A stretch of DNA of 64,000 nt, from positions 7,284 to 71,283 of the forward strand of contig JACRBQ010000028.1 in assembly GCA_016213135.1 (NCBI GenBank), read 5' to 3'. Below are positions 12,323 through 60,262 of this stretch, piece after piece. Every line of letters begins with the position of its first letter. The first letter of the stretch is position 1. Made by a program: the position numbers and the translations under genes. The notes beneath the pieces are model-generated. The model made no database searches. It saw nothing but the letters and a program-made list of their open reading frames with translations, and was not told where the DNA came from. Source of the stretch: Chloroflexota bacterium. Its GTDB lineage: Bacteria > Chloroflexota > Anaerolineae > Anaerolineales > VGOW01.

Positions 12323-12946
12323 ATGGACTCGCCTAAAATTATCAAACGCCGGTCGTTTACCGACTGGCTGCGCTTGCGGCTCAAGTGGCTCACCGAACCG
12401 GTGGGCGCATTAGTGGCCCGGTTGGGCATCCACCCCAACGTGCTCACGGTGATCGGTTTTGTGGGCAACGTGCTGGGCGCGGCCGCGTTGGCCGCCGGCC
12501 GCATCTCGCTCGGCGGCTGGATTATTCTGGCAATGGGGCCTGTCGACGGGCTGGATGGCGCGACCGCCCGCGCCAGGGGCCAGCCGTCGCCCTTCGGCGC
12601 CTTTGTGGATTCGGTGACCGACCGCTACTCCGAGGCAGTTATCTATCTCGGCCTGCTGATCTCTTTCCTCGGACAGCCGGGCGATCACTCTCAAGCGTTT
12701 GTTCTGGCCTTCGTGGCCTTCGTCGGTTCGGTGATGGTCTCGTACGTCAAAGCTCGCGCCGAAGCCCTGGGCTTCGAGTGCAACGTGGGCCTGCTCACGC
12801 GAGTGGAGCGCTATCTCATCCTCGCCCCGCTGCTCATCTTTGACTTGCCCATGGCTGCGCTGTGGATCATTGCCATACTGGCCAATGTGACGGCCCTACA
12901 GCGCATCTGGCACGTTCGCAGGCAGTGGTACGATAAAATTAGGTAA
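12323..12946 (+). CDS. CDP-alcohol phosphatidyltransferase (likely phosphatidylinositol-phosphate synthase type)
   Basis: DG(x)2AR...G(x)3D(x)3D motif in GPVDGLDGATARARGQPSPFGAFVDSVTDRYSE. Multiple TM helices. Sits directly downstream of ino1. Confidence 0.85.
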   Translation: MDSPKIIKRRSFTDWLRLRLKWLTEPVGALVARLGIHPNVLTVIGFVGNVLGAAALAAGRISLGGWIILAMGPVDGLDGATARARGQPSPFGAFVDSVTDRYSEAVIYLGLLISFLGQPGDHSQAFVLAFVAFVGSVMVSYVKARAEALGFECNVGLLTRVERYLILAPLLIFDLPMAALWIIAILANVTALQRIWHVRRQWYDKIR

Positions 12947-13017
12947 TGAACAATGAAAGAATGAACAATGAACAACGGGCGTTGCCATTGTTCATTGTTC
13001 ATTGTTCATAGTTCATT
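12946..13017. repeat. inverted pair of heptamer arrays (GAACAAT-type) forming a long hairpin
   Basis: The left arm ATGAACAATGAAAGAATGAACAATGAACAA faces the right arm TTGTTCATTGTTCATTGTTCATAGTTCATT. It lies between the CDP-alcohol gene stop and the lgt start. Confidence 0.8.
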
Positions 13018-13029
13018 CACAGGTTTAGC

Positions 13030-13869
13030 ATGTCAATCGATAGCCTCGGCATTCACATCGGCACGCTGCTGTACATCCGTTTCTACGGCATCATCCTCGT
13101 CACCGGCGCGGTGATCGGCACCTATCTGGCCTCGACCGAAGCCCGGCGCAAGGGGCAAGACCCGAACCTCGTTTGGGACGCGTTGGTGTGGGCGCTCGTC
13201 GGAGGCATCATCGGCGCGCGTCTGTACCACGTGTTCACCCCGCCGCCCAGCATGGTGGCCGCCGGCTTCACCACGGCCGCCTACTTTGCCGACCCGGTCA
13301 AGATTTTCCAAGTGTGGAACGGCGGCCTCGGCATCCCCGGCGGCATTGTGGGCGGGCTGCTGGCAATGTGGCTGTACGCCCGCTATGCCAAAGTGGACTT
13401 CCTCACCTGGGTGGACATCGCCGCGCCGGCCGTGCCGTTGGCGCAAGCCATCGGCCGCTGGGGCAACTTCGTCAACCAGGAGTTGTATGGCCAGCCTACC
13501 GACCTGCCGTGGGCCATCTATATCGCGCCGCTGAATCGCGTTGCGGGCTTCGAGCAGTTCGAGCGTTTTCACCCGGTGTTCCTGTACGAATCGATCCTCA
13601 ACTTGCTCGTATGCCTGGCGATGTTGTGGCTCGCCCGCCGCTTTGCCGGGCGCCTCAGGTCGGGCGACATGCTGTTGCTCTATCTCATGTTTTATCCCAC
13701 CGTTCGCTTTTTCATGGAATTCCTGCGGCTGGATAGCAGCGGCTTCGGTAACCTGAACATCAACCAGACCCTGTCGGCGGCCGTGGCGGTATTGGCGGGT
13801 GTTGGGTTTGCCGTCCGGCACCGCCGCCAGCGCCGCGCCGGTCTCCATGCTGCCGGCACGCCGGGGTAG
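13030..13869 (+). CDS. lgt: prolipoprotein diacylglyceryl transferase
   Basis: IRFYGIILVTGAVIG, GGIIGARLYH, WNGGLGIPGG, IGRWGNFVNQELYG. Confidence 0.93.
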   Translation: MSIDSLGIHIGTLLYIRFYGIILVTGAVIGTYLASTEARRKGQDPNLVWDALVWALVGGIIGARLYHVFTPPPSMVAAGFTTAAYFADPVKIFQVWNGGLGIPGGIVGGLLAMWLYARYAKVDFLTWVDIAAPAVPLAQAIGRWGNFVNQELYGQPTDLPWAIYIAPLNRVAGFEQFERFHPVFLYESILNLLVCLAMLWLARRFAGRLRSGDMLLLYLMFYPTVRFFMEFLRLDSSGFGNLNINQTLSAAVAVLAGVGFAVRHRRQRRAGLHAAGTPG

Positions 13870-26177: not shown

Positions 26178-28565
26178 GTGCAGTTACAAAACCCCTTCGT
26201 GACCCCCACACCCCCACACCCCCACACCCCCACACTCACACATCGCGACCTCGCCGCGCTCGCCCTCCTCTTCCTCGCCGCCTTCGCCTTCTGCTGGCCC
26301 ATCTTCGCCCCCGGCTGGATCATCCCGCAGGGCGGCGGCGACCTCGTCTCCTTCCTCTGGCCTACCTACCGCTACGCCGCGCGCGTGCTTCATAGTCAAC
26401 CTTGCGCCTCTTTCTCCACAATGTTCAATCCGCAATCTGCAATCTGCAATCTGCAATCTGCATATTCCGCCCTCCTCTGGAACCCCACCCTCTACTCCGG
26501 CGCGCCCTTCGCCGCCGATAACCAGACCGGACTCTTCTACCCCCCGAACCTCGTTGCGTTTCTCCTCTTTCCCGACCTGCCCTACGCCGCCCTCGAAACC
26601 CTCGTCGCCCTGCACCTCTTCCTCGCCGGGGTCGGCGCCTACCTCTTCGTGCGTTTGGAGTTTCCGGCGAGAGATTCGAAGTTGGAAGTTGGAAATTTGA
26701 AATTTGAAGTTGGAAGTTGGAAGTTTGAAGCTGGCCTCGTCTCCGCCCTTGCCTTCATGGCCTCCGACGTATTCATCACCCACCTCGGCAACTACAACAT
26801 CGTCGCCGTCTCTGCTTACCTCCCCTTCATCTTTCTCTGTCTTCGCCGCTCCCTCTCCCATACCCCCACACCCCCATACTCGTCCGTCAAATGGTCTGTG
26901 TTAGCAGGTCTGTCCCTCGGCCTCGCCGCCCTCGCCGGCCACGCCCAGATGACCCTCATCCTCGCCTTCGCCTGCGCCCTCTACACCCTCTACCACCTCC
27001 TCACTCACATCCCGTCACTCCTCACGCCTCGCGCCTCACTGCTCACTGATCACAGGCCACTGCCCACTGGTCACCGCCCACTGCTCGCTGCCCACTGGCC
27101 CCTGCTCACTATTCCTCTCGTCGCCTTCGGCCTCGCCGCCATCGCCCTCCTGCCCGCCCTGCAAATGGTCGGCTACACCGCCCGCACCGCCCTCAGCTAC
27201 ACCGACGCCTCGCGCTGGAGCCTCCCGCCCCTCGGCCTCGCCGGAGCCGTCAGCCCGCTCGTCTTCGGGCGCGGCGCGCGCGACTTCTGGCCGACGTGGG
27301 ATCGCGTCGAATTCGGCTACATGGGCATCGTGGCCCTCAGCCTTGCCGCCCTCGCCCGCAAGCCGCGTTTCTTCATCGCCCTCGCCCTCGTCGCCCTCGT
27401 CATCGCCCTGGGCCGCTACACCCCCGTTCATCAACTCCTCTTTCAGTTCGTTCCCGGATTCGCTTCCATTCGCGTCCCGGCCCGCTTCATCCTCCTCACT
27501 AACTTTTCCCTCGCCGTCCTCGCCGGTCACTCATTGATTGAAAAACGAAACCGCCCATGGATCATCCTTGCGGCAGTGGCCCTCGCCTCGACCCTCCTCA
27601 TCCTTGCCGCCGATCTGGCCTGGGCGCATCCCCCGGCGTGGGGGGCCATCATCACCACCCTGGCCCTCATCGCCGCCACCGCCCTCCTCTACCAGCGCGC
27701 CCCGGCCCTCCTCCCGCTCTTCCTCTTCGCCGAACTCTTCACCTTTGGCGCATTCGTCGAAACCGACCGCGCCGATCCAAACGCCGGCTACACCCGTGGC
27801 CCCGCCCTCGACTACCTGCTTGCCCAACCCGGCCCCACCCGCATCGACCTTGCCACTTCGCAATGGCAGCCCGATGCCCCTGCCGTGTTCGGCCTCGAAT
27901 CGATCACCGGCATCGCCAACCCGCTCGCCCTCGCCGCCTATGACCGCTACTACTGGTCCGTGGGCTACCGTGGCTCGCCGCAATATAACTTCCTCGGCGC
28001 GCAATTCGTCGTCGCCGACAAAAACCACCCTCCCGCCGACAGCAGCTTTGTTCCCGTCTTCAACGAAGACCCTGCCGTAGACGTTTATCTCAACACCAAC
28101 GCCATGCCCCGCATCAGCCTCATCACCGACCCCGTCTTCGTCCCCGACCCGGGCTCTGCCTTCGCTGCTATCCACGACCCGGCCTTCAACCCCGCCGCCC
28201 AAGTCGTACTCGAAAGTCAGGCGTCAGCGGTCAGCGGCCAGCCATCGGCTAACACGAATCTCTTTTACACCGCGTATGCGCCCGGCCAATTCACCATCGT
28301 CGCCCAAACCCCGGCCCCGGCCTACCTCGTCCTCGCCGAAGTGTGGTACCCCGGCTGGGTCGCCACCCTCAACGGGCAACCCGCGCCCATCCTTCGCGCG
28401 GACACTGCCTTCATGGCCGTGCTCCTTCCCGCAGGCGAAAGCACCGTCGCCTTCCATTTCACCTCGCCCCTGCTCACCCTCGGCGCAATCATCACCCTCA
28501 TCACTCTCCTCGCCTCTGTGATTCTGTTGTTCATCCTTCATCCTTCATCGTTCATCCTTCCATGA
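26178..28565 (+). CDS. YfhO-family polytopic membrane glycosyltransferase-like protein carrying several in-frame oligomer arrays
   Basis: LWNPTLYSGAPFAADNQTGLFYPPNL near the N-terminus and LAEVWYPGWVATLNGQPAPILRADTAFMAVLLPAGESTVAFHF near the C-terminus, both typical of YfhO. The start is uncertain (GTG at 26178 or 26199). Confidence 0.7.
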   Translation: MQLQNPFVTPTPPHPHTPTLTHRDLAALALLFLAAFAFCWPIFAPGWIIPQGGGDLVSFLWPTYRYAARVLHSQPCASFSTMFNPQSAICNLQSAYSALLWNPTLYSGAPFAADNQTGLFYPPNLVAFLLFPDLPYAALETLVALHLFLAGVGAYLFVRLEFPARDSKLEVGNLKFEVGSWKFEAGLVSALAFMASDVFITHLGNYNIVAVSAYLPFIFLCLRRSLSHTPTPPYSSVKWSVLAGLSLGLAALAGHAQMTLILAFACALYTLYHLLTHIPSLLTPRASLLTDHRPLPTGHRPLLAAHWPLLTIPLVAFGLAAIALLPALQMVGYTARTALSYTDASRWSLPPLGLAGAVSPLVFGRGARDFWPTWDRVEFGYMGIVALSLAALARKPRFFIALALVALVIALGRYTPVHQLLFQFVPGFASIRVPARFILLTNFSLAVLAGHSLIEKRNRPWIILAAVALASTLLILAADLAWAHPPAWGAIITTLALIAATALLYQRAPALLPLFLFAELFTFGAFVETDRADPNAGYTRGPALDYLLAQPGPTRIDLATSQWQPDAPAVFGLESITGIANPLALAAYDRYYWSVGYRGSPQYNFLGAQFVVADKNHPPADSSFVPVFNEDPAVDVYLNTNAMPRISLITDPVFVPDPGSAFAAIHDPAFNPAAQVVLESQASAVSGQPSANTNLFYTAYAPGQFTIVAQTPAPAYLVLAEVWYPGWVATLNGQPAPILRADTAFMAVLLPAGESTVAFHFTSPLLTLGAIITLITLLASVILLFILHPSSFILP
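26203..26242. repeat. tandem octamer array (CCCCCACA)x4-5 inside the YfhO-like ORF
   Basis: Four perfect units plus a degenerate one, translated as TPTPPHPHTPTLTH. A related array of three units lies at 26856..26879. Confidence 0.85.
26424..26465. repeat. tandem heptamer array (TGCAATC-type, 6 units) inside the YfhO-like ORF
   Basis: TTCAATC CGCAATC TGCAATC x3 TGCATAT. 42 bp = 14 codons (FNPQSAICNLQSAY). Confidence 0.85.
26676..26731. repeat. tandem heptamer array (TGGAAGT/TTGAAAT-type, 8 units) inside the YfhO-like ORF
   Basis: TCGAAGT TGGAAGT TGGAAAT TTGAAAT TTGAAGT TGGAAGT TGGAAGT TTGAAGC, translated as SKLEVGNLKFEVGSWKFEA. Confidence 0.85.
27002..27113. repeat. tandem heptamer array (CACTGCT-type, about 16 units) inside the YfhO-like ORF
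   Basis: CACTGCT CACTGAT CACAGGC CACTGCC CACTGGT CACCGCC CACTGCT CGCTGCC CACTGGC CCCTGCT CACTATT, preceded by 5 degenerate units. This gives a 7-aa protein periodicity (LLTDHRP LPTGHRP LLAAHWP). Confidence 0.8.
28526..28560. repeat. tandem heptamer array (ATCCTTC/ATCGTTC, 5 units) at the 3' end of the YfhO-like ORF
   Basis: GTTGTTC ATCCTTC ATCCTTC ATCGTTC ATCCTTC. This is the same family, in reverse orientation, as the array at 60152..60210. Confidence 0.8.
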
Positions 28566-38723: not shown

Positions 38724-39725
38724 CTACAAATTGCCCAACACCCCCTCCAACACCTTGACGGCCGCCGCGACCGTTTTCCCTGCCTTATCCAGAGTCGGGT
38801 CGACCGCCGAAAGCGTAACGGCCATCAGCCGTTTGTTGGCGATCAGATCGCGACAAATGCGAATTGCCTCGTCACTGCTCAAGCCGCCCGGCGCGGGGTA
38901 GTTCACACCGGGCGCTTCTTTCAAGTCCAGCACGTCAATATCGAAGTGAAGATAAAACGTCTGCACGTTGCTCAAGGCTTTCGCGGCCAGTGAGTGATCG
39001 CGCCGCGCTCCTTCGGCGTCCAACACGGTGAGCTGCGTCGTTTTCATCAGCGCCGCTTCCGGCGGGTCAAGGTCGCGCGCGCCGACCAACGCGCAGTTTT
39101 GAGTCCGCGCGGGCTTGGCGAGCCTGGCGGCCTGGCGCAGCGGCGCGTTGCCGTAACCGCAAATTGTCGCGTACGGCATCCCGCCGATGTATCCGGAGAG
39201 AGACGTCTCTTCGGTGTTCCAGTCGCCGTGCGCGTCGAACCAAACCACGCCGGTCTTCTGCGGGTCTCGCGTGCGTGTGATCCCGCTCCACACGCCAATG
39301 GCGTTGCAACAGTCGCCGCCGAGAATGACCGGCAGAAGTTTGTGGTCGAGCGCCTCGGCCACTGCTTCCGCGACGTGCTCCTGCAACCGCCCCAGCCGTT
39401 CCAGCATAGTGCCCTCGCCCAGGTCTGTCCTGAGCGCAGCCGAAGGGCCTGCCCCGGCCGTAGCTGAAGGGCTTGTCCTGAGCGTAGCCGAAGGACTTGT
39501 CCTGAGCGTAGCCGAAGGACTTGTCCTGAGCGCAGCCGAAGGACTTGTCCTGAGCGTAGTCGAAGGATCGTCAGTCATTCTTTGCGTATACGCGATCGTC
39601 AAACCGAGGGATGCCAACCGATCCGGCAGTCCGGCGGCGAACAGCGCGTCCGGCGCTTGCCCCGTGCCGACCAAATGCCGGTCCTGGCTGAATGGAACAG
39701 AGATGAGGGCGATTTCTTTTGGCAT
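38724..39725 (-). CDS. arginase/agmatinase/formiminoglutamase-family ureohydrolase with a 48-aa in-frame repeat insert
   Basis: Metal-binding motifs VVWFDAHGDWN, LVGARDLDPPE, LHFDIDVLD. The insert runs from aa 53 to aa 100. Confidence 0.83.
   Translation of the reverse strand: MPKEIALISVPFSQDRHLVGTGQAPDALFAAGLPDRLASLGLTIAYTQRMTDDPSTTLRTSPSAALRTSPSATLRTSPSATLRTSPSATAGAGPSAALRTDLGEGTMLERLGRLQEHVAEAVAEALDHKLLPVILGGDCCNAIGVWSGITRTRDPQKTGVVWFDAHGDWNTEETSLSGYIGGMPYATICGYGNAPLRQAARLAKPARTQNCALVGARDLDPPEAALMKTTQLTVLDAEGARRDHSLAAKALSNVQTFYLHFDIDVLDLKEAPGVNYPAPGGLSSDEAIRICRDLIANKRLMAVTLSAVDPTLDKAGKTVAAAVKVLEGVLGNL
39426..39569. repeat. six tandem 24-bp units (TGTCCTGAGCGTAGCCGAAGGACT) in frame in the ureohydrolase gene
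   Basis: Four near-perfect and two degenerate units. Each contains the palindrome GTCCT...AGGAC. Translation is (SPSATLRT)n. Confidence 0.9.
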
Positions 39726-40995: not shown

Positions 40996-41016
40996 TGAAT
41001 GCTCCTCAGTGTCGTA

Positions 41017-41079
41017 GGTGACTGTCACCGCGCACAAGACGCTTGAATTTTCGAACTCTGATGCGCGGTGACAGTCACC
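41017..41079. repeat. 63-bp hairpin element, family B, copy 1
   Basis: The 18-bp perfect arms GGTGACTGTCACCGCGCA / TGCGCGGTGACAGTCACC enclose a 27-nt loop. Confidence 0.9.
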
Positions 41080-41100
41080 TTAAAGCGCAACGGCCGGTGT

Positions 41101-42537
41101 TCACCCGTTTGACTGGCCCACGGTGTGCAGCAGCACGATGTTGGCCGGCCCCATGTGCCCGATGGGCAGCCCGGCGATGAGGACGACCTGCTGGCCGGGG
41201 GTGAGTCCGGTTTCGCGAATGAGCGCGTCTTCCACGTCGAGGATCATTTCTTCGACCGAGGTGGCGGTGGGGACGAGATAAGGCTGCACGCCCCACAGCA
41301 TGGCGAGGCGCGGGTAAGTGTCCGGCTCCGGCGTGAAGGCCAGCACCGGGACGGAGGGCCGTTCTTTGGAAAGGATGCGGGCGCTGCGTCCAGTGCGGGT
41401 GAAGATGGCAATGCTCTCCACGTTGCGGTCGCGCGCCAGTTCGCGGGCGGCGCGAGCAATAGCCACGGCGTCCACCGAGGTGCTCTCGTGCACTTCGCGG
41501 AAGTGCCCCCATTCCTTTTCGTGCTGCTCGGCTTCGTCGGCAATGGCGGCCATCATCTTCACGGCCTCCACCGGATATTGGCCGGAGGCGGTTTCGGCGG
41601 AGAGCATCACGGCATCGGTGCCGTCGAATATGGCGTTGGCCACGTCGGAGGCTTCGGCGCGGGTGGGGCGCGGGCTGTTGATCATCGACTCCAGCATTTG
41701 CGTGGCGGTGATGACGATCTTGCCGCGCCCGTTGGCCGCCTCGATAATCTGTTTTTGCGCCGTGGGCACCTGTTGTGGGCTAAGCTCCACGCCCATGTCG
41801 CCGCGGGCCACCATCACGCCGTCGGCGGCGTCGAGAATGGCCGAAAGGTTTTCGAGCGCGGCGGGTTTCTCAAGTTTGGCGATGATCGGGGTGTTGTCCT
41901 TCGCGGGGTCGATCTTGTGTATGGCTCGCCGCACGTCCAACACGTCGGGGGCGCGTTGAATGAACGAAATGGCGACGTAATCCACGCCGTGCTCGAGACC
42001 GAAGGCCAGGTCGGCGCGGTCTTTTTCAGTCAGGGGCGGCACGTTGACTAGGATGCCCGGCAGGTTGATGCCTTTGCGCGGTTTGAGCAGGCCGCCGTGG
42101 GTGACCGTGGTGGTCACGTCGGTGTCGGAGGTGTCCTGCACTTTCAATTCGATGTTGCCATCGTAGAGCAGGATCACGTCGCCGGGGTTGAGATCCCACG
42201 GCAGGCCGCGATAGGTGGTGCTCACAAGCTGTTCGGTGCCGGGCACGTCGCGGGTGGTGATGACGAAAGTTGCGCCATCCTTGAGTGTGGCCTCTCCGCC
42301 GTCGGCAAAGGCGCCAATGCGAATCTTGGGGCCTTGCAAGTCCTGCAGAACTGCGATGGGCCTCCTGAGCCGCGCCGCCACCTGCCGGACGGTGTCAAGC
42401 ACCCGGGCGTGGTAGTCGTGCGTGCCGTGCGAAAAGTTGAGCCGGGCAACGTTCATCCCGGCGCGGATTAAGGCTTCGATCTTCTCAGGGGTGTCGGAAG
42501 ACGGGCCGAGGGTGGCGATGATTTTTGTTTTGCGCAT
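41101..42537 (-). CDS. pyk: pyruvate kinase
   Basis: MRKTKIIATLGPSSDTPEKIEALIRAGMNVARLNFSHGTHDYH, MVARGDMGVE. Confidence 0.96.
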   Translation of the reverse strand: MRKTKIIATLGPSSDTPEKIEALIRAGMNVARLNFSHGTHDYHARVLDTVRQVAARLRRPIAVLQDLQGPKIRIGAFADGGEATLKDGATFVITTRDVPGTEQLVSTTYRGLPWDLNPGDVILLYDGNIELKVQDTSDTDVTTTVTHGGLLKPRKGINLPGILVNVPPLTEKDRADLAFGLEHGVDYVAISFIQRAPDVLDVRRAIHKIDPAKDNTPIIAKLEKPAALENLSAILDAADGVMVARGDMGVELSPQQVPTAQKQIIEAANGRGKIVITATQMLESMINSPRPTRAEASDVANAIFDGTDAVMLSAETASGQYPVEAVKMMAAIADEAEQHEKEWGHFREVHESTSVDAVAIARAARELARDRNVESIAIFTRTGRSARILSKERPSVPVLAFTPEPDTYPRLAMLWGVQPYLVPTATSVEEMILDVEDALIRETGLTPGQQVVLIAGLPIGHMGPANIVLLHTVGQSNG

Positions 42538-42653
42538 GATTTTGGGACGGGCCTCGCGAGTTGGAAGTTATTATACACGCCCGCCGGTGGGTTTTTGCGC
42601 CGGGGGGGGATCGGCGCGGCAGGGGCGGGGCTTGTCCCCGCCCGCGTTTGAAA

Positions 42654-42716
42654 GGTGACTGTCACCGCGCACAAGATGCTTGGATTTTCGAACTCTGATG
42701 CGCGGTGACAGTCGCC
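42654..42716. repeat. 63-bp hairpin element, family B, copy 2
   Basis: Nearly identical to 41017..41079 (3 differences by eye). A half-copy, GGTGACTGTCACC, lies at 349..361. Confidence 0.9.
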
Positions 42717-42782
42717 TGCGACAGGTTTAGAGATAAGTTCTGAACCGATGGGGTGAGGTGGAAAGCAACGGACGCGGCGCAA

Positions 42783-45653: not shown

Positions 45654-46568
45654 TCAGGAGCGTGCCGATCCCACGACTCTTTTTTCGGCGGGCGTCATGC
45701 GGGCGCGGAGGAGTTTGTAGCGGCGCACGGTTTCGATGGCGGTGTAGACGAGCCAGTTGAATGGCGCGGGATAGCGGGCGGCGAAGTGCTTGCGGTGAAA
45801 GAGTTGCATGGCATCGTAGAAGGCGTTGATCATGCGCTCCGGTTGCTTGCGGGTGGACGTGCCCTTGAGATGCTTGACGGTGACTTCGGGCCAGTAGACG
45901 ACGCGATAGCCGCGCTTTTTGATTCGCAGGTTGAGGTCGAGGTCTTCGCCGTACATGAAAAAGGATTCGTCCATAAGGCCCGCTTTGACGAGAGCCTCGC
46001 CGCGCATGAGCATGCACGCACCGACGACGGAGTCCACGTCGGCGGTTTGGCGCTCGGGCAGGAAGGTCATGTTGTAGCGGGCGAAGGCGGGGCTGTGTGG
46101 AAAGAGTTTGGCGAGGCCGAAGATGTAATAGAACGATGTGACGGGGGTCGGCTCGCCCCGGCGGCAGGCGAGGTCGAGCGAGCCGTCGGCCAGTTCGAGG
46201 CGCGGGCCGAGCACGCCGATGTCGGGGTGCGAGTCGAGGTGGGCCACCATGCGGCGCAGGGCGTCGGGCGGGGTTTCGGTGTCGGGGTTGAGCAGCATGG
46301 CGTGGCGGTAGCGCGGGGCATCGGGGAAGCCCGCCGCCTTCAGACCGAGGTTGTTGCCGAAGGAGTAACCGCCGTTGGTGCGCGAGTCGATGACTTTGCA
46401 CCAGCCGAACTGCCGGCGCACGAAGTCGGCGGCGCCGTCCGTGCCGCCGTTGTCCACCACGAACACATCGGCCTCCAGCCCTTCCAGCGCGGCGCGCAGG
46501 GCGCCGAGGCACGGGGGGAGGAATTCTTTGGAATTGTGCGAGACGATGACGATGGCGAGGGTATTCAT
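45654..46568 (-). CDS. GT2 family glycosyltransferase
   Basis: LAIVIVSHNSKEFL...VVDNGGTDGAADF...GGYSFGNNLG...YGEDLDLNLRIKKRGYRV. Confidence 0.88.
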   Translation of the reverse strand: MNTLAIVIVSHNSKEFLPPCLGALRAALEGLEADVFVVDNGGTDGAADFVRRQFGWCKVIDSRTNGGYSFGNNLGLKAAGFPDAPRYRHAMLLNPDTETPPDALRRMVAHLDSHPDIGVLGPRLELADGSLDLACRRGEPTPVTSFYYIFGLAKLFPHSPAFARYNMTFLPERQTADVDSVVGACMLMRGEALVKAGLMDESFFMYGEDLDLNLRIKKRGYRVVYWPEVTVKHLKGTSTRKQPERMINAFYDAMQLFHRKHFAARYPAPFNWLVYTAIETVRRYKLLRARMTPAEKRVVGSARS

Positions 46569-46595
46569 GATTACAGGAGTCAGGAGTCAGATGGC

Positions 46596-46728
46596 GGAGG
46601 TCGGAGGTCGGAGGTCGGAGGTCGGAGGTCGGAGGTCGGAGGTCGGAGGTCGGAGGTCGGAGGTCGGAGGTCGGAGGTCGGAGGTCGGAGGTCGGAGGTC
46701 GGAGGTCGGAGGTCGGAGGTCGGAGGTC
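46596..46728. repeat. perfect tandem array (GGAGGTC)x19
   Basis: 133 bp with no deviation from the 7-nt period. Flanked by (CAGGAGT)x2.4 at 46574-46590 and two copies of the 14-mer CATTCCGACTCCTG at 46731-46758. Confidence 0.97.
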
Positions 46729-46762
46729 GACATTCCGACTCCTGCATTCCGACTCCTGAATA

Positions 46763-47737
46763 CTATGCTTTTAGTATCTCCCAATAGCTCCCCAGCCGCC
46801 GCTGGAGTTTCGCGTCGTCGATTTTGCCGGTGAGGCGGCCTTTGAGGGTGCGGGCCAGCCAAAAAAGCAGGCCCACCACGGTAATGGCTTTGAGCGCGGC
46901 GTACGGCAGCAGCCCGTAGTTCTTGCGATAAAAGTACGACTGGCTGCGGTAGAACTGCGCCGAGAATCTCTCCGGGTCTTTGGAGGTGCTGTGCGCGCCG
47001 AGGTGGGTGATGGTGGCCTCGGGAGTGTAGAGTAGCTTCCACCCGGCGCGGCGGGCGCGGTAGCACCAGTCGGTCTCCTCAAAATAGATGCCGAACTTTT
47101 CGTCCATCCCCGGCAGTTGCTCGTAGAGCGCGCGGCGAAAGAGCAGCGTAGCGCCCAGGATGTGTTCCACCTCGCGCACGCGGCGGTAGTCGTCGGGCAG
47201 GTAACGCCCGTTTTGCGGCGAGTCCACCGGTGTGAGCATTTCGAAGAAACCGTAGAACGCCGTTTGCAGGCTGGGGAAGCGGAAGGTGTTGTGTTGCAGT
47301 GTGCCGTCGGGGTTGACGACGTGCGGCGCGATCATGCCCGCCTTGGGATGCTGGTTGGCAAAGGCTGCCAGCCGCGCCAGCGCGCCGGGGTGAACGACGG
47401 TGTCCGGGTTGAGCATGAAGATGAGGGGCGCGGTCGCTTGCCTGAACCCGAAGTTGTTGCCCCCGGCGAATAGCAGATTGCCGTGCCCCGCAAACAGCCG
47501 CACCCACGGGAACTCGCGGGCGATGATCTCCGGCGTGCCGTCTGTGGAGCCGTTGTCCACGACGATGGTCTCAACTTCAGACGGTGGACGAAAGACGAGG
47601 GTGGGTAGCTGGTCGTTGGTCGCGGGTTGTTGGTCGCCGGGCTGGCCGCTCCAGCCGCCGGGGATGGAGGCAAGGCAATCGCGGATGACAGTGGCCGAGT
47701 TATAGGTGACGATGACGATGGACAGGGCGGGAGGCAT
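46763..47737 (-). CDS. GT2 family glycosyltransferase with a low-complexity insert
   Basis: LSIVIVTYNSATVI...VVDNGSTDGTPEI...NNFGFRQA...FEETDWCYRARRAGWKL. The insert GGWSGQPGDQQPATNDQLP overlaps a TTGGTCG-type heptamer run at 47609-47636. Confidence 0.85.
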   Translation of the reverse strand: MPPALSIVIVTYNSATVIRDCLASIPGGWSGQPGDQQPATNDQLPTLVFRPPSEVETIVVDNGSTDGTPEIIAREFPWVRLFAGHGNLLFAGGNNFGFRQATAPLIFMLNPDTVVHPGALARLAAFANQHPKAGMIAPHVVNPDGTLQHNTFRFPSLQTAFYGFFEMLTPVDSPQNGRYLPDDYRRVREVEHILGATLLFRRALYEQLPGMDEKFGIYFEETDWCYRARRAGWKLLYTPEATITHLGAHSTSKDPERFSAQFYRSQSYFYRKNYGLLPYAALKAITVVGLLFWLARTLKGRLTGKIDDAKLQRRLGSYWEILKA

Positions 47738-47741
47738 TGAG

Positions 47742-47776
47742 AGAAGTCAGAAGTCAGAAGTCAGAGGTCAGAAGTT
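47742..47776. repeat. tandem heptamer array (AGAAGTC x3, AGAGGTC, AGAAGTT)
   Basis: Lies between the DedA stop and the GT2 start. A partly complementary segment, TTCTGACTCCTGAATTCTGTCTTCTGGCTCCTG, follows at about 47790-47822. Confidence 0.85.
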
Positions 47777-47824
47777 TGTGTATGCTTTCATTCTGACTCC
47801 TGAATTCTGTCTTCTGGCTCCTGT

Positions 47825-58726: not shown

Positions 58727-60085
58727 TCACGTGAGGTAGGGCAGGAGGACGGTGGCGAGTCCGAGGAAGAGGGCGAAGCCGACGCAATCGGTGACGGTGG
58801 TGACGATGACAGCGGAGGCCAGAGCGGGATCGAGCTTGAGGGCTTTGAGAGTAAGGGGGACGAAGGCTCCGGCGATGCCGCCGGCGATCATGTTGCCGAT
58901 CATGGCCAGGCCGATGATGAGGCCGAGGACGGGCTTGCCTTTCCACAGGTAGGCGCCAACGCCGACGATGACGCCGATGGCGACGCCGTTGAGGACGCCG
59001 AGGGAGGCTTCGCGGGTCATGGCGCGCAGGGCGTCTTTGGTTTCGACTTCGCCGAGGGCCATGCCGCGCACGATGACGGTGAGACTTTGGGTGGCGGAGT
59101 TACCGCCCTGCCCGGCGACGATGGATTGGAGGGCGGCGAGGACGGCCACGCGGGCGATGGTGGATTCGAAGAGGCTGACGACCCACGCCGCGAGGAAGGC
59201 GGTGCCGAGGTTGACGATGAGCCACGGGAGGCGGCTGCGAACGGAGCGGGTGACGGGGCTGAAGACGTGCTCGTCGCTGTCGGCGACGTTGGCGAGGCGG
59301 TACATGTCTTCGGTGGCTTCTTCTTCCATGACTTCGACGATGTCGTCATTGTGAATGACGCCGACGAGGCGGCCGTCGGGGCCGACGACGGGCAGGGCCA
59401 GCAGGCCGTAGCGGGCGATGATACGGGCGCATTCCTCTTGATCGGTGCCGAGGGGCACGGTGATGAGGTCGGGGTTCATCACGGATTCGATGGTGGTGTC
59501 GGGGTCGGAGATGATGAGGTCGCGCAGGCCGACGACGCCGATGAGTTTGCCGTCGCGGTCGAGTACGTAAAGGTAATAAGGCGTTTCGGTTTCGGGGTGC
59601 AGTTTGCGGAGGTGCTCGATGGCCTGCTGGCAGGTCATTTGCCGCCGCAGATGCGGAAAGTCGGGGGTCATTAGGCCGCCGGCGGTGTCGTCGTCGTAGG
59701 CGAGGAGCGGGATGACGTCTTCGGCTTGCTCGGCGTCCATTTGGGCGATGACGGTGGCGGCTTGATCGGGGGGCAGGTCGCCCAGAACGTCGGCGGCTTC
59801 GTCGGGATCCATTTCGTCGAGGACGTCGGCGAGGCGGCCGGGGGAGAGGCGGGAGGCGGCTTCGGCGGCTTCGTCGTCCCCGAGTTGCTCGAGGAGCTCG
59901 GCGGCGGCGTCTACGTTGAGGCGGGGGAGGACTTCGGCTTGATCGTCCGGCTTGAGATCGCTGAAGGCTTCGGCCTGATCGGCGGGGTGGAGGCTGATGA
60001 GGGCGGTGATCGCCTCGTCCACCTGCCCCGCTTCCAGGGCGGCGCGGATGCGCTCGAGGGCGGCATCGATGACATGTTGTTCCAT
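58727..60085 (-). CDS. mgtE: magnesium transporter MgtE
   Basis: MgtE_N acidic helical domain, a tandem CBS pair, and a C-terminal TM domain with GNSATQSLTVIVRGMALGE. Confidence 0.95.
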   Translation of the reverse strand: MEQHVIDAALERIRAALEAGQVDEAITALISLHPADQAEAFSDLKPDDQAEVLPRLNVDAAAELLEQLGDDEAAEAASRLSPGRLADVLDEMDPDEAADVLGDLPPDQAATVIAQMDAEQAEDVIPLLAYDDDTAGGLMTPDFPHLRRQMTCQQAIEHLRKLHPETETPYYLYVLDRDGKLIGVVGLRDLIISDPDTTIESVMNPDLITVPLGTDQEECARIIARYGLLALPVVGPDGRLVGVIHNDDIVEVMEEEATEDMYRLANVADSDEHVFSPVTRSVRSRLPWLIVNLGTAFLAAWVVSLFESTIARVAVLAALQSIVAGQGGNSATQSLTVIVRGMALGEVETKDALRAMTREASLGVLNGVAIGVIVGVGAYLWKGKPVLGLIIGLAMIGNMIAGGIAGAFVPLTLKALKLDPALASAVIVTTVTDCVGFALFLGLATVLLPYLT

Positions 60086-60151
60086 GGATGACTCCTTGGG
60101 CGGTGGGATTAAATGCCGCGCCCCGGTCGGAGAGTCGGGGCGCGTAAAACC

Positions 60152-60262
60152 GAAGGATGAACGATGAAGGATGAACGATGAAGGATGAACGATGAACGAT
60201 GAACGATGAAATCCGACCTCCGACCTCCGACCTCCGACCTCTGACCTCCGACCTCTGACCTC
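60152..60262. repeat. two abutting heptamer arrays: (GAAGGAT/GAACGAT)x8 then (CGACCTC/TGACCTC)x7
   Basis: They fill most of the trkA-mgtE spacer. The second array (60214-60262) is the reverse complement of the GGAGGTC family at 46596..46728. A GC hairpin, GCGCCCCG/CGGGGCGC, lies at 60118-60143. Confidence 0.9.

Follow-up and report, generated by a model that had tools for sequence, protein, structure and literature searches.

A 19-copy heptanucleotide array of probable slippage origin in a glycan gene cluster of an uncultivated Chloroflexota lineage

RESULTS

A perfect heptanucleotide array lies between two glycosyltransferase genes

The element considered here is a perfect (GGAGGTC)x19 array in the spacer between two family 2 glycosyltransferase (GT2) genes, GT2a and GT2b, within a 64,000-nucleotide stretch of contig JACRBQ010000028.1 (the window, i.e. 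the whole stretch of DNA that was analysed). The host is an uncultivated member of the Chloroflexota as judged from the source names of homologues (the 100%-identical protein MBI5290908.1 is entered as 'MAG: Chloroflexi bacterium'; MAG, metagenome-assembled genome), and several of the relatives derive from groundwater metagenomes. Synteny with relatives gives the order of the cluster as four family 4 glycosyltransferase (GT4) genes, a gene for a Wzy_C-TPR protein, one for a VTT/DedA-like protein and three GT2 genes. Operon neighbours mostly overlap or nearly abut, and GT2c overlaps or abuts GT2b. The genes and repeats at the GT2a–GT2b junction are as follows (TRF, Tandem Repeats Finder; ORF, open reading frame; SD, Shine–Dalgarno).

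45654–46568, minus strand: GT2b, the family 2 glycosyltransferase gene downstream of the array, with a start that lacks an SD sequence (Pfam PF00535/PF13641/PF13632; 304-aa homologues)
46574–46590, minus strand: pyrimidine-rich 3′ arm, (CTGACTC)x2.4 on the mRNA strand, equivalent to CAGGAGT x2.4 on the plus strand (TRF, reading)
46595–46729, minus strand: perfect heptanucleotide array of 19.3 copies, GACCUCC on the operon mRNA and GGAGGTC on the plus strand (TRF, period scan, reading)
46731–46758, minus strand: purine-rich 5′ arm, CATTCCGACTCCTG x2 on the plus strand and CAGGAGTCGGAATG x2 on the mRNA strand (TRF, reading)
46763–47737, minus strand: GT2a, the family 2 glycosyltransferase gene upstream of the array (Pfam PF00535/PF13641; synteny in L002, L004, L210 and L213)
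46580–46747 and about 46587–46735, minus strand: small ORFs through the array, with stops 14 and 21 nt ahead of the GT2b ATG (ORF list)

The ends of GT2b and GT2a fit the lengths of their orthologues (304 aa and 313–324 aa, respectively); gene calls in the window at large, as in the cross-phylum census described below, are crude. TRF reports CGGAGGT x19.3 at 46595–46729 with 100% matches, no indels and a score of 270, the exact-period scan recovers the same 135-nt run, and direct reading of the sequence agrees, confirming the strict 7-nt period noted in a first-pass annotation of this DNA. That annotation also located the array between two GT2 genes, one ending at 46763 and the next starting at 46568 without an SD, and described it as framed by CAGGAGT repeats and two 14-mers, with 19 CCUCC cores on the operon mRNA as (GACCUCC)19; the ORFs, Pfam matches and upstream sequence bear out the position, TRF and reading the flanks, and reading the cores. 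Nineteen perfect heptamer copies are far beyond chance, and the array shows the uninterrupted head-to-tail arrangement, longer than chance, that defines long simple sequence repeats (SSRs; units of 1–11 nt).

The whole spacer measures 194 nt, and its mRNA strand can be read in heptamer register as (CAGGAGT CGGAATG CAGGAGT CGGAATG) T (CGACCTC x19) (CGCCATC TGACTCC TGACTCC TG) TAATC ATG. The 5′ arm thus amounts to two pairs of CRGARKT-type heptamers, and every copy of its 14-mer CAGGAGTCGGAATG presents AGGAG, 5 nt and AUG. The two AUGs, at 46747 and about 46733, open the small ORFs, which would encode (RPPTSDL)n or (TSDLRPP)n; their frame is not conserved in the allele of the close relative L210, and the array is missing from close strains. 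On the other side, the pyrimidine-rich arm stops 5 nt short of the GT2b ATG, and the edge of the array lies 26 nt from that start. Given the overlapping or closely spaced genes on either side, the array is presumably transcribed with the operon. No SD-like 4-mer precedes the start at 46568, an Rfam scan of 45.5–48.5 kb returned nothing relevant, and a scan for consensus promoters and terminators found no sites within the spacer.

Close relatives carry one unit, other heptamers or no element

Comparison of the locus in related strains, which the first-pass annotation had proposed as a check, reveals a spacer of 6 nt without the element, of 75 nt with one unit, or with unrelated heptamers. In L001 and L213–L216, in which GT2b is ∼94% identical at the protein level, the spacer is 6 nt long (TAA-CCCACC-ATG) and holds no array. 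More distant orthologues of GT2b are preceded by heptamers of other kinds: a 77-nt spacer with AGAGAAT/TGGAGAT heptamers and inverted copies in L002 (80%), a 64-nt spacer ending in (TTCTGAC)x4.7 in L004–L008 (78%), AACGACA/TCGTTTG heptamers in L129 (82%), GGAAGTC...TTCTGAC CTCCGAC in L131 (75%), (TTATCAC)x4 in L132 (73%), and (CCACTGC)x5 in L212, where the upstream gene differs. The most informative allele is that of L210, which is 97.5–98.3% identical to the window in DNA over 10 kb and has matching flanks around a 75-nt spacer composed of one 14-mer, the units GACCTTC GCATTCC GACCTCC, and (CTGACTC)x3.4. Between window and L210, the copy numbers are thus 19 versus 1 perfect unit for GACCTCC, 2 versus 1 for the 14-mer and 2.4 versus 3.4 for CTGACTC, i.e. 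the variation between close genomes with conserved flanks that is characteristic of SSRs. The suggestion of a recent expansion or active slippage is supported by this allele. Because strains of ∼98–99% identity carry one unit or no element, the 19-copy run is best read as a very recent expansion of a single unit; on the same comparison, all three repeat blocks of the spacer are length-polymorphic and the whole element is dispensable.

L209 has the 6-nt junction of the L001 type, and its DNA identity to the window is 99.1% downstream of the junction and 93.9% upstream. This step in identity implies that L209 is a recombinant, with a breakpoint at or beside the repeat-bearing spacer. In L211 (99.3% identical, from a different MAG), the contig begins exactly at the 3′ edge of the array, inside the CTGACTC arm, which suggests that assemblers struggle at the array. 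Such a break would be expected if the array were real and its count of 19 collapsed or arbitrary, the 135-nt run being near short-read k-mer and read lengths; likewise, the 19 copies are not reproduced in an independent assembly, and the locus-specific junction pattern has 0 matches in metagenome contigs. We nevertheless regard an artefactual count as unlikely, in that the window contig crosses the array with unique flanks on both sides and the GGAGGTC unit reaches 11–17 copies in other genomes, and a wrong count would leave the identity of the element unchanged.

Presence and absence among close strains, together with a hairpin-like architecture and the existence of a true 65-nt dispersed palindrome elsewhere in the window, could also reflect the insertion of a small mobile element between GT2a and GT2b, similar to miniature inverted-repeat transposable elements (MITEs) or repetitive extragenic palindromic (REP) sequences. 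However, the filled junction cannot be derived from the empty one by a clean insertion, neither a target-site duplication nor a terminal inverted repeat being present, and the two differ in GT2b codons 2–3 and in the GT2a stop region as well. As the units also vary among spacers and do not make up a single conserved element, and the GACCTCC unit matches local coding sequence, a MITE/REP-like insertion was rejected as highly improbable.

The 65-nt palindromic element itself (AGGYGACTGTCACCGCGCA ... TGCGCGGTGACAGTCACCT) occurs on the minus strand at 41016–41080 and 42653–42717, with 62 of 65 positions identical between the copies, which flank a pyruvate kinase gene (41101–42537). It is also present in L209, L210, L212 and L213, has only sub-threshold Rfam matches (miRNA-precursor hairpins), and looks like a REP/MITE-like dispersed hairpin.

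The unit resembles the 5′ end of the GT2b coding sequence

In strains that lack the element, GT2b opens with ATG CCC GAC CTC GCC ATC, and the 3′ end of the array, CCGACCTCCGCCATC, agrees with these codons at 14 of 15 positions over the stretch CCGACCT-CGCCATC. A score this high is reached by 5 of 5000 shuffles, and other spacers score far lower. The match suggests, without proving, that the unit was seeded by a duplicated copy of local sequence rather than imported.

Heptamer arrays recur throughout the window and its clade

Among perfect arrays of at least 3 copies, the window holds 6 at period 7, 1 at period 8, and 0 at periods 4–6 and 9–12; with mismatches allowed, 12 of the 19 arrays of at least 3 copies have period 7. 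The same period dominates in the related contigs L002, L004 and L005, so that the excess of one unit length that marks the SSR class is present in the 64-kb window and its relatives alike. The units themselves are varied (AATGAAC, CAATCTG, GAAGTTG, CTCACTG, TTCATCC, AGAAGTC, GAACGAT and TCCGACC in the window). The 590 kb of Chloroflexota loci that were picked solely for encoding a GT2b relative contain 50 period-7 arrays of ∼30 different units, concentrated in the closest relatives, and the arrays adjoin genes of all kinds (MgtE, TrkA, YfhO, acyl-CoA dehydrogenase and others). Those of the window that are discussed below are the following.

12945–13017, plus strand: (AATGAAC)x4 followed by the inverted heptamers (GTTCATT)x4.6, which together make a hairpin between two genes, just ahead of the start at 13030 (TRF)
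26202–26235, 26426–26462, 26678–26734, 27035–27110 and 28530–28560, plus strand: arrays of the YfhO-like gene (TRF/reading)
47738–47824, minus strand: spacer A, from the VTT/DedA-like gene to GT2a, with the same plan as the array spacer (heptamer register; fold)
60152–60210, minus strand: (GAACGAT/GAAGGAT)x8.4, AUCGUUC (pyrimidine-rich) on the mRNA, upstream of the MgtE gene (TRF, reading)
60212–60262, minus strand: second array of the GGAGGTC unit family, (TCCGACC/TCTGACC)x7.3 on the plus strand (TRF, reading)

The second array of the GGAGGTC family begins 10 nt past the stop of a TrkA-like gene and is missing from the orthologous spacer of L004. Its minus-strand mRNA reads GGAGGUC/AGAGGUC, i.e. 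the SD-like sense, opposite to that of the 19-copy array. A GC-rich hairpin (60085–60152, minus strand; GCGCCCCGAC...CCGGGGCGC) separates these heptamer arrays from the MgtE start and is followed by AAGGAG, one of the few good SD sequences in the window; the orthologous MgtE leader of L004 has another structured GC-rich sequence.

The heptamers are not confined to spacers. The gene for a YfhO-like membrane protein (26178–28565, plus strand) carries four heptamer arrays and one octamer array in its reading frame, and alignment with the L005 orthologue (484 identical residues) places these as in-frame loop insertions of ∼12–16 residues between conserved blocks. The L005 orthologue has heptamer arrays of its own (GTGGGGC, CCAATCT and CAGTGAT). 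A repeat of a different period, a 24-nt unit TGTCCTGAGCGTAGCCGAAGGACT in 5.9 copies with 86% identity (TRF score 207), occupies 39426–39567, in or beside an ORF at 38724–39725 (minus strand).

Inverted heptamers form hairpins at sister spacers

The plan of a purine-rich arm followed by a pyrimidine-rich arm is seen most clearly in spacer A, which reads (CAGGAGC CAGAAGA CAGAATT CAGGAGT CAGAATG), loop, (CTTCTGA CCTCTGA CTTCTGA CTTCTGA CTTCTCT) CA ATG. Its five purine-rich CAGRAGN-type heptamers and the five CTTCTGA-type heptamers that follow form a hairpin with a predicted minimum free energy (MFE) of −33.2 kcal/mol and a z-score of −4.27, and none of 200 shuffles is equally stable. L210 has other heptamers in this place. 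Spacer A also contains AGGAGTCAGAATG, similar to the AGGAG-AUG 14-mer CAGGAGTCGGAATG of the array spacer. Strong hairpins are likewise predicted for the inverted heptamer pair at 12940–13032 of the window (z = −7.52 against shuffles) and in L002 (−8.09), L129 (−4.54) and L132 (−4.84).

The spacer that holds the 19-copy array is no more stable than its shuffles, with z-scores of −1.36 on the mRNA strand and +1.59 on the other; for the short-allele spacer of L210, the value is −2.51. In the MFE fold, the AGGAG-bearing 5′ arm pairs with the 3′ flank CUGACUCCUG and not with the array, so that both flanks pair around the array, in keeping with the pairing anticipated in the first-pass annotation. 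As modelled, the expansion would have swamped the hairpin in this spacer, and the array would be essentially unstructured C-rich RNA.

The strand facing a start codon is pyrimidine-rich irrespective of CCUCC

The GGAGGTC unit is widely distributed: reference genomes hold at least 120 stretches of (GGAGGTC)x4 or longer, with 4–17 copies, and the hosts among the matches listed include Verrucomicrobiota, Planctomycetota, Lentisphaerota, Gemmatimonadota, Bacteroidota, Nostoc and Proteobacteria, the first two being especially rich (L009–L128). At the loci among these listed matches, 237 arrays have period 7 versus at most 18 of any other single period, and one-base variants are the most frequent of the other units (CAGAGGT, GGAAGTC, GAAGTCA). 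Orientation was scored at the same listed matches with crude ORF calls. If position is ignored, co-directional gene pairs show no preference to speak of, with the C-rich strand on the mRNA in 14 cases versus 12. Among arrays no more than 40 nt ahead of a long-ORF start, 27 versus 10 have the C-rich strand as the sense strand (P = 0.008), whereas within 40 nt past a stop, the G-rich strand is sense in 24 versus 15 (Fisher P = 0.003 between the two positions). A census class of 56 arrays 'inside ORFs' was discarded as unreliable, since GGAGGTC arrays are stop-free in all frames on both strands and hence give rise to spurious long ORFs, as they do in the window.

The same polarity is found in the clade set (the window, L002, L004, L005, L129, L132, L210, L212 and L213), in which the mRNA strand is pyrimidine-rich for 15 of the 16 arrays near a start (P = 5 × 10⁻⁴; some of these arrays are orthologous and hence not independent). 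Most of the units concerned lack CCUCC, e.g. TTCATCG, CTTCTGA, CCACTGC, CATTGTT and CCTTCGT. Both arrays of the GGAGGTC type in the window follow the rule. Because CCUCC-free units share the bias, the C-rich strand before a start is one case of a general purine/pyrimidine positional rule, the simplest explanation of which is that purine-rich, SD-like repeats are not tolerated beside start codons.

These data bear directly on the proposal, made in the first-pass annotation, that the (GACCUCC)19 RNA is a mimic of the anti-SD end of 16S rRNA, which sequesters SD sequences or acts as an RNA sponge and would constitute a new type of regulator. The 19 CCUCC cores are indeed on the mRNA strand, the two AGGAG motifs of the 5′ arm could be masked by the array, and the 27 versus 10 preference among the matches listed extends the C-rich orientation just upstream of starts across phyla. 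However, neither the element nor its CCUCC content is conserved at orthologous loci (missing in L001, L209 and L213–L216; other units in L002, L004, L129, L132 and L212). A target is also lacking, as the GT2b start has no SD ahead of it either in the window or in the relatives compared, whether the array is present or not. Starts without an SD are usual here, an SD 4-mer match being seen at just 13 of the 45 roughly called gene starts of the window, and the array is not the cause of the missing SD. Furthermore, the strand bias is not specific to CCUCC, the predicted pairing partner of the AGGAG arm is the 3′ flank, and the unit is transcribed in the SD-like sense at 60212–60262. The comparative data thus largely refute a dedicated anti-SD mimic, which we consider very improbable. 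The array may still act as the length-variable translational coupler or decoupler that the first-pass annotation listed among its possible roles.

A second regulatory possibility, by analogy with the (ATCTTTC)n repeats of hmw1A (PMC12721329), is that the locus is a selected, length-tunable contingency locus in which the length of the RNA structure formed by the array and its purine-rich arm determines how strongly GT2b and GT2c are expressed. Length differences between strains at a glycosyltransferase gene, arms that pair around the array, strongly stable inverted-heptamer hairpins at sister spacers and a strand bias that implies constraint at the RNA level would all agree with such a role, for which hmw provides a precedent. 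Against it, heptamer arrays flank every kind of gene and not only surface genes (Rehm et al. argued likewise against phase variation for GGGNATC repeats; PMC4692102), the spacer as a whole folds no more stably than shuffled sequence, and the element is dispensable in near-identical strains. On balance, selection for tunable length at this locus seems doubtful.

DISCUSSION

An expanded microsatellite with a passive effect

The reading that we favour, with a probability of roughly 0.78, is that the array is a slippage-generated heptanucleotide microsatellite that recently expanded from one unit of an intercistronic heptamer hairpin and whose effect, if any, is passive. It is one of many period-7 arrays that occupy the gene spacers, and some protein loops, of a groundwater Chloroflexota lineage. 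The starting point would have been a small inverted-heptamer hairpin with a single GACCTCC unit in its pyrimidine-rich 3′ arm, the unit having possibly been derived from a duplicated 5′ end of the GT2b coding sequence. Strand slippage could then have grown the single unit to 19 copies. The stop-to-start distance would thereby have changed from the coupling-permissive 6 nt of element-free strains to 194 nt of mostly unstructured C-rich RNA, and the longer spacer probably lowers or uncouples the translation of GT2b and GT2c, an effect that would be heritable yet reversible as the copy number changes.

Several points weigh against this interpretation. The orientation bias shows that there is selection on the transcribed strand, such that the arrays are not entirely neutral, and the avoidance of SD-like repeats may be inseparable from a positive contribution of C/U-rich leaders to SD-independent initiation. 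Slippage and heterogeneity within the population are deduced from different assemblies rather than at the level of reads, and the element-free junctions may be recombination-derived, as in L209, which leaves the direction of change not fully settled. Finally, the array sits in a surface-glycan gene cluster, and tunable expression is selected at such loci in other bacteria.

The locus provides a natural example of fast turnover of a heptanucleotide microsatellite (0, 1 and 19 units among strains of ∼98–99% identity) located between two cistrons of a glycan gene cluster in an uncultivated Chloroflexota lineage, together with evidence for selection on which strand of an array faces a start codon. 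For annotators, perfect G- or C-rich heptamer arrays are a hazard, as they yield long but spurious ORFs and cause breaks in short-read assemblies. Had the array proved to be a tandem anti-SD mimic, it would have represented a new class of translational regulator; the comparative evidence speaks against this. A more speculative view, to which we give little weight, is that the heptamer arrays make up a genome-wide system of length-variable intercistronic RNA elements, in which slippage tunes translational coupling or RNase processing gene by gene. Were this so, each such element should present a purine-rich arm after the stop and a pyrimidine-rich arm running up to the next start, and the 19-copy allele would be the extreme low-coupling state of a glycan-modifying glycosyltransferase, i.e. 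a contingency locus similar to the hmw 5′-untranslated region (5′-UTR) in a free-living groundwater bacterium.

Comparison with known heptanucleotide repeats

Tandem heptamer families in the intergenic DNA of filamentous bacteria, the short tandemly repeated repetitive (STRR) sequences of cyanobacteria, were reportedly described by Mazel and colleagues in 1990. STRR units include CCCCAGT, TTGGTCA and CAACAGT. The likeness to the present arrays lies in tandem heptamers that are scattered through intergenic DNA, whereas phylum and units differ. Membership of the STRR family was therefore rejected, the host being a member of the Chloroflexota with units other than the canonical ones.

A broader frame is given by the long SSRs of prokaryotes (Mrazek, Guo and Shah 2007). 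As summarized in later papers (PMC4679880, PMC4692102), Mrazek et al. found heptanucleotides to be the most abundant class of long SSR in most prokaryotic genomes and proposed polymerase slippage over a contact of roughly 7 nt as the cause. In terms of these summaries, the array agrees with long SSRs in its head-to-tail 7-nt units, mostly non-coding location, abundance within the genome, phylogenetically scattered occurrence, variation in copy number among close relatives and proposed origin by slippage. What sets the present case apart from the SSRs so described is the Chloroflexota lineage, the GGAGGTC unit, and the inverted layout of purine- and pyrimidine-rich arms. Other heptamers on record include the GGACCGG and MTYCTGA sets of Geobacter metallireducens (PMC2700814) and, in Chloroflexus aurantiacus, the (GATAGRA)n satellites (PMC6749651).

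The closest parallel in polarity is found in the GGGNATC and GGGGA(C/T)T repeats of Xanthomonas and Nostoc (Rehm et al. 2015, PMC4692102), which are G-rich heptamers of 2–26 copies, located preferentially between co-directional ORFs, with the G-rich strand sense after stops and antisense before starts. They too vary extensively in length among related genomes, and a regulatory role has not been established. In contrast to the GGAGGTC unit, which has only GG runs and coexists here with many unrelated units, the GGGNATC repeats have G3–4 tracts, G-quadruplexes and a preference for four copies. The TAACTGA repeats of marine Beggiatoaceae, cyanobacteria and Bacteroidetes (MacGregor 2015, PMC4679880), for which a role in translation has been proposed but not shown, resemble the present arrays in abutting SD-less starts in an SD-poor genome and in occurring also inside ORFs; they differ in having one dominant unit in one orientation and mostly 2–6 copies, whereas the units here are diverse and turn over between strains.

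The only mechanistically dissected heptamer found in the literature is that of hmw1A in Haemophilus influenzae, where the transcribed (ATCTTTC)n tract forms a 5′-UTR hairpin with a G-rich arm that is processed by RNase III, and expression drops as the repeats increase (PMC12721329). The hmw1A/hmw2A loci (PMC12721329, PMC8262952) share with the present locus a pyrimidine-rich heptamer array upstream of a surface-related gene, the potential to pair with a purine-rich arm and a strain-variable copy number. There, the array lies in a promoter-proximal 5′-UTR, and the dependence on length and RNase III was shown by experiment, whereas the array described here lies between two cistrons and is one member of a genome-wide population of arrays. 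Taken together, these comparisons place the (GGAGGTC)x19 array within an already known kind of repeat rather than a new type of regulator.

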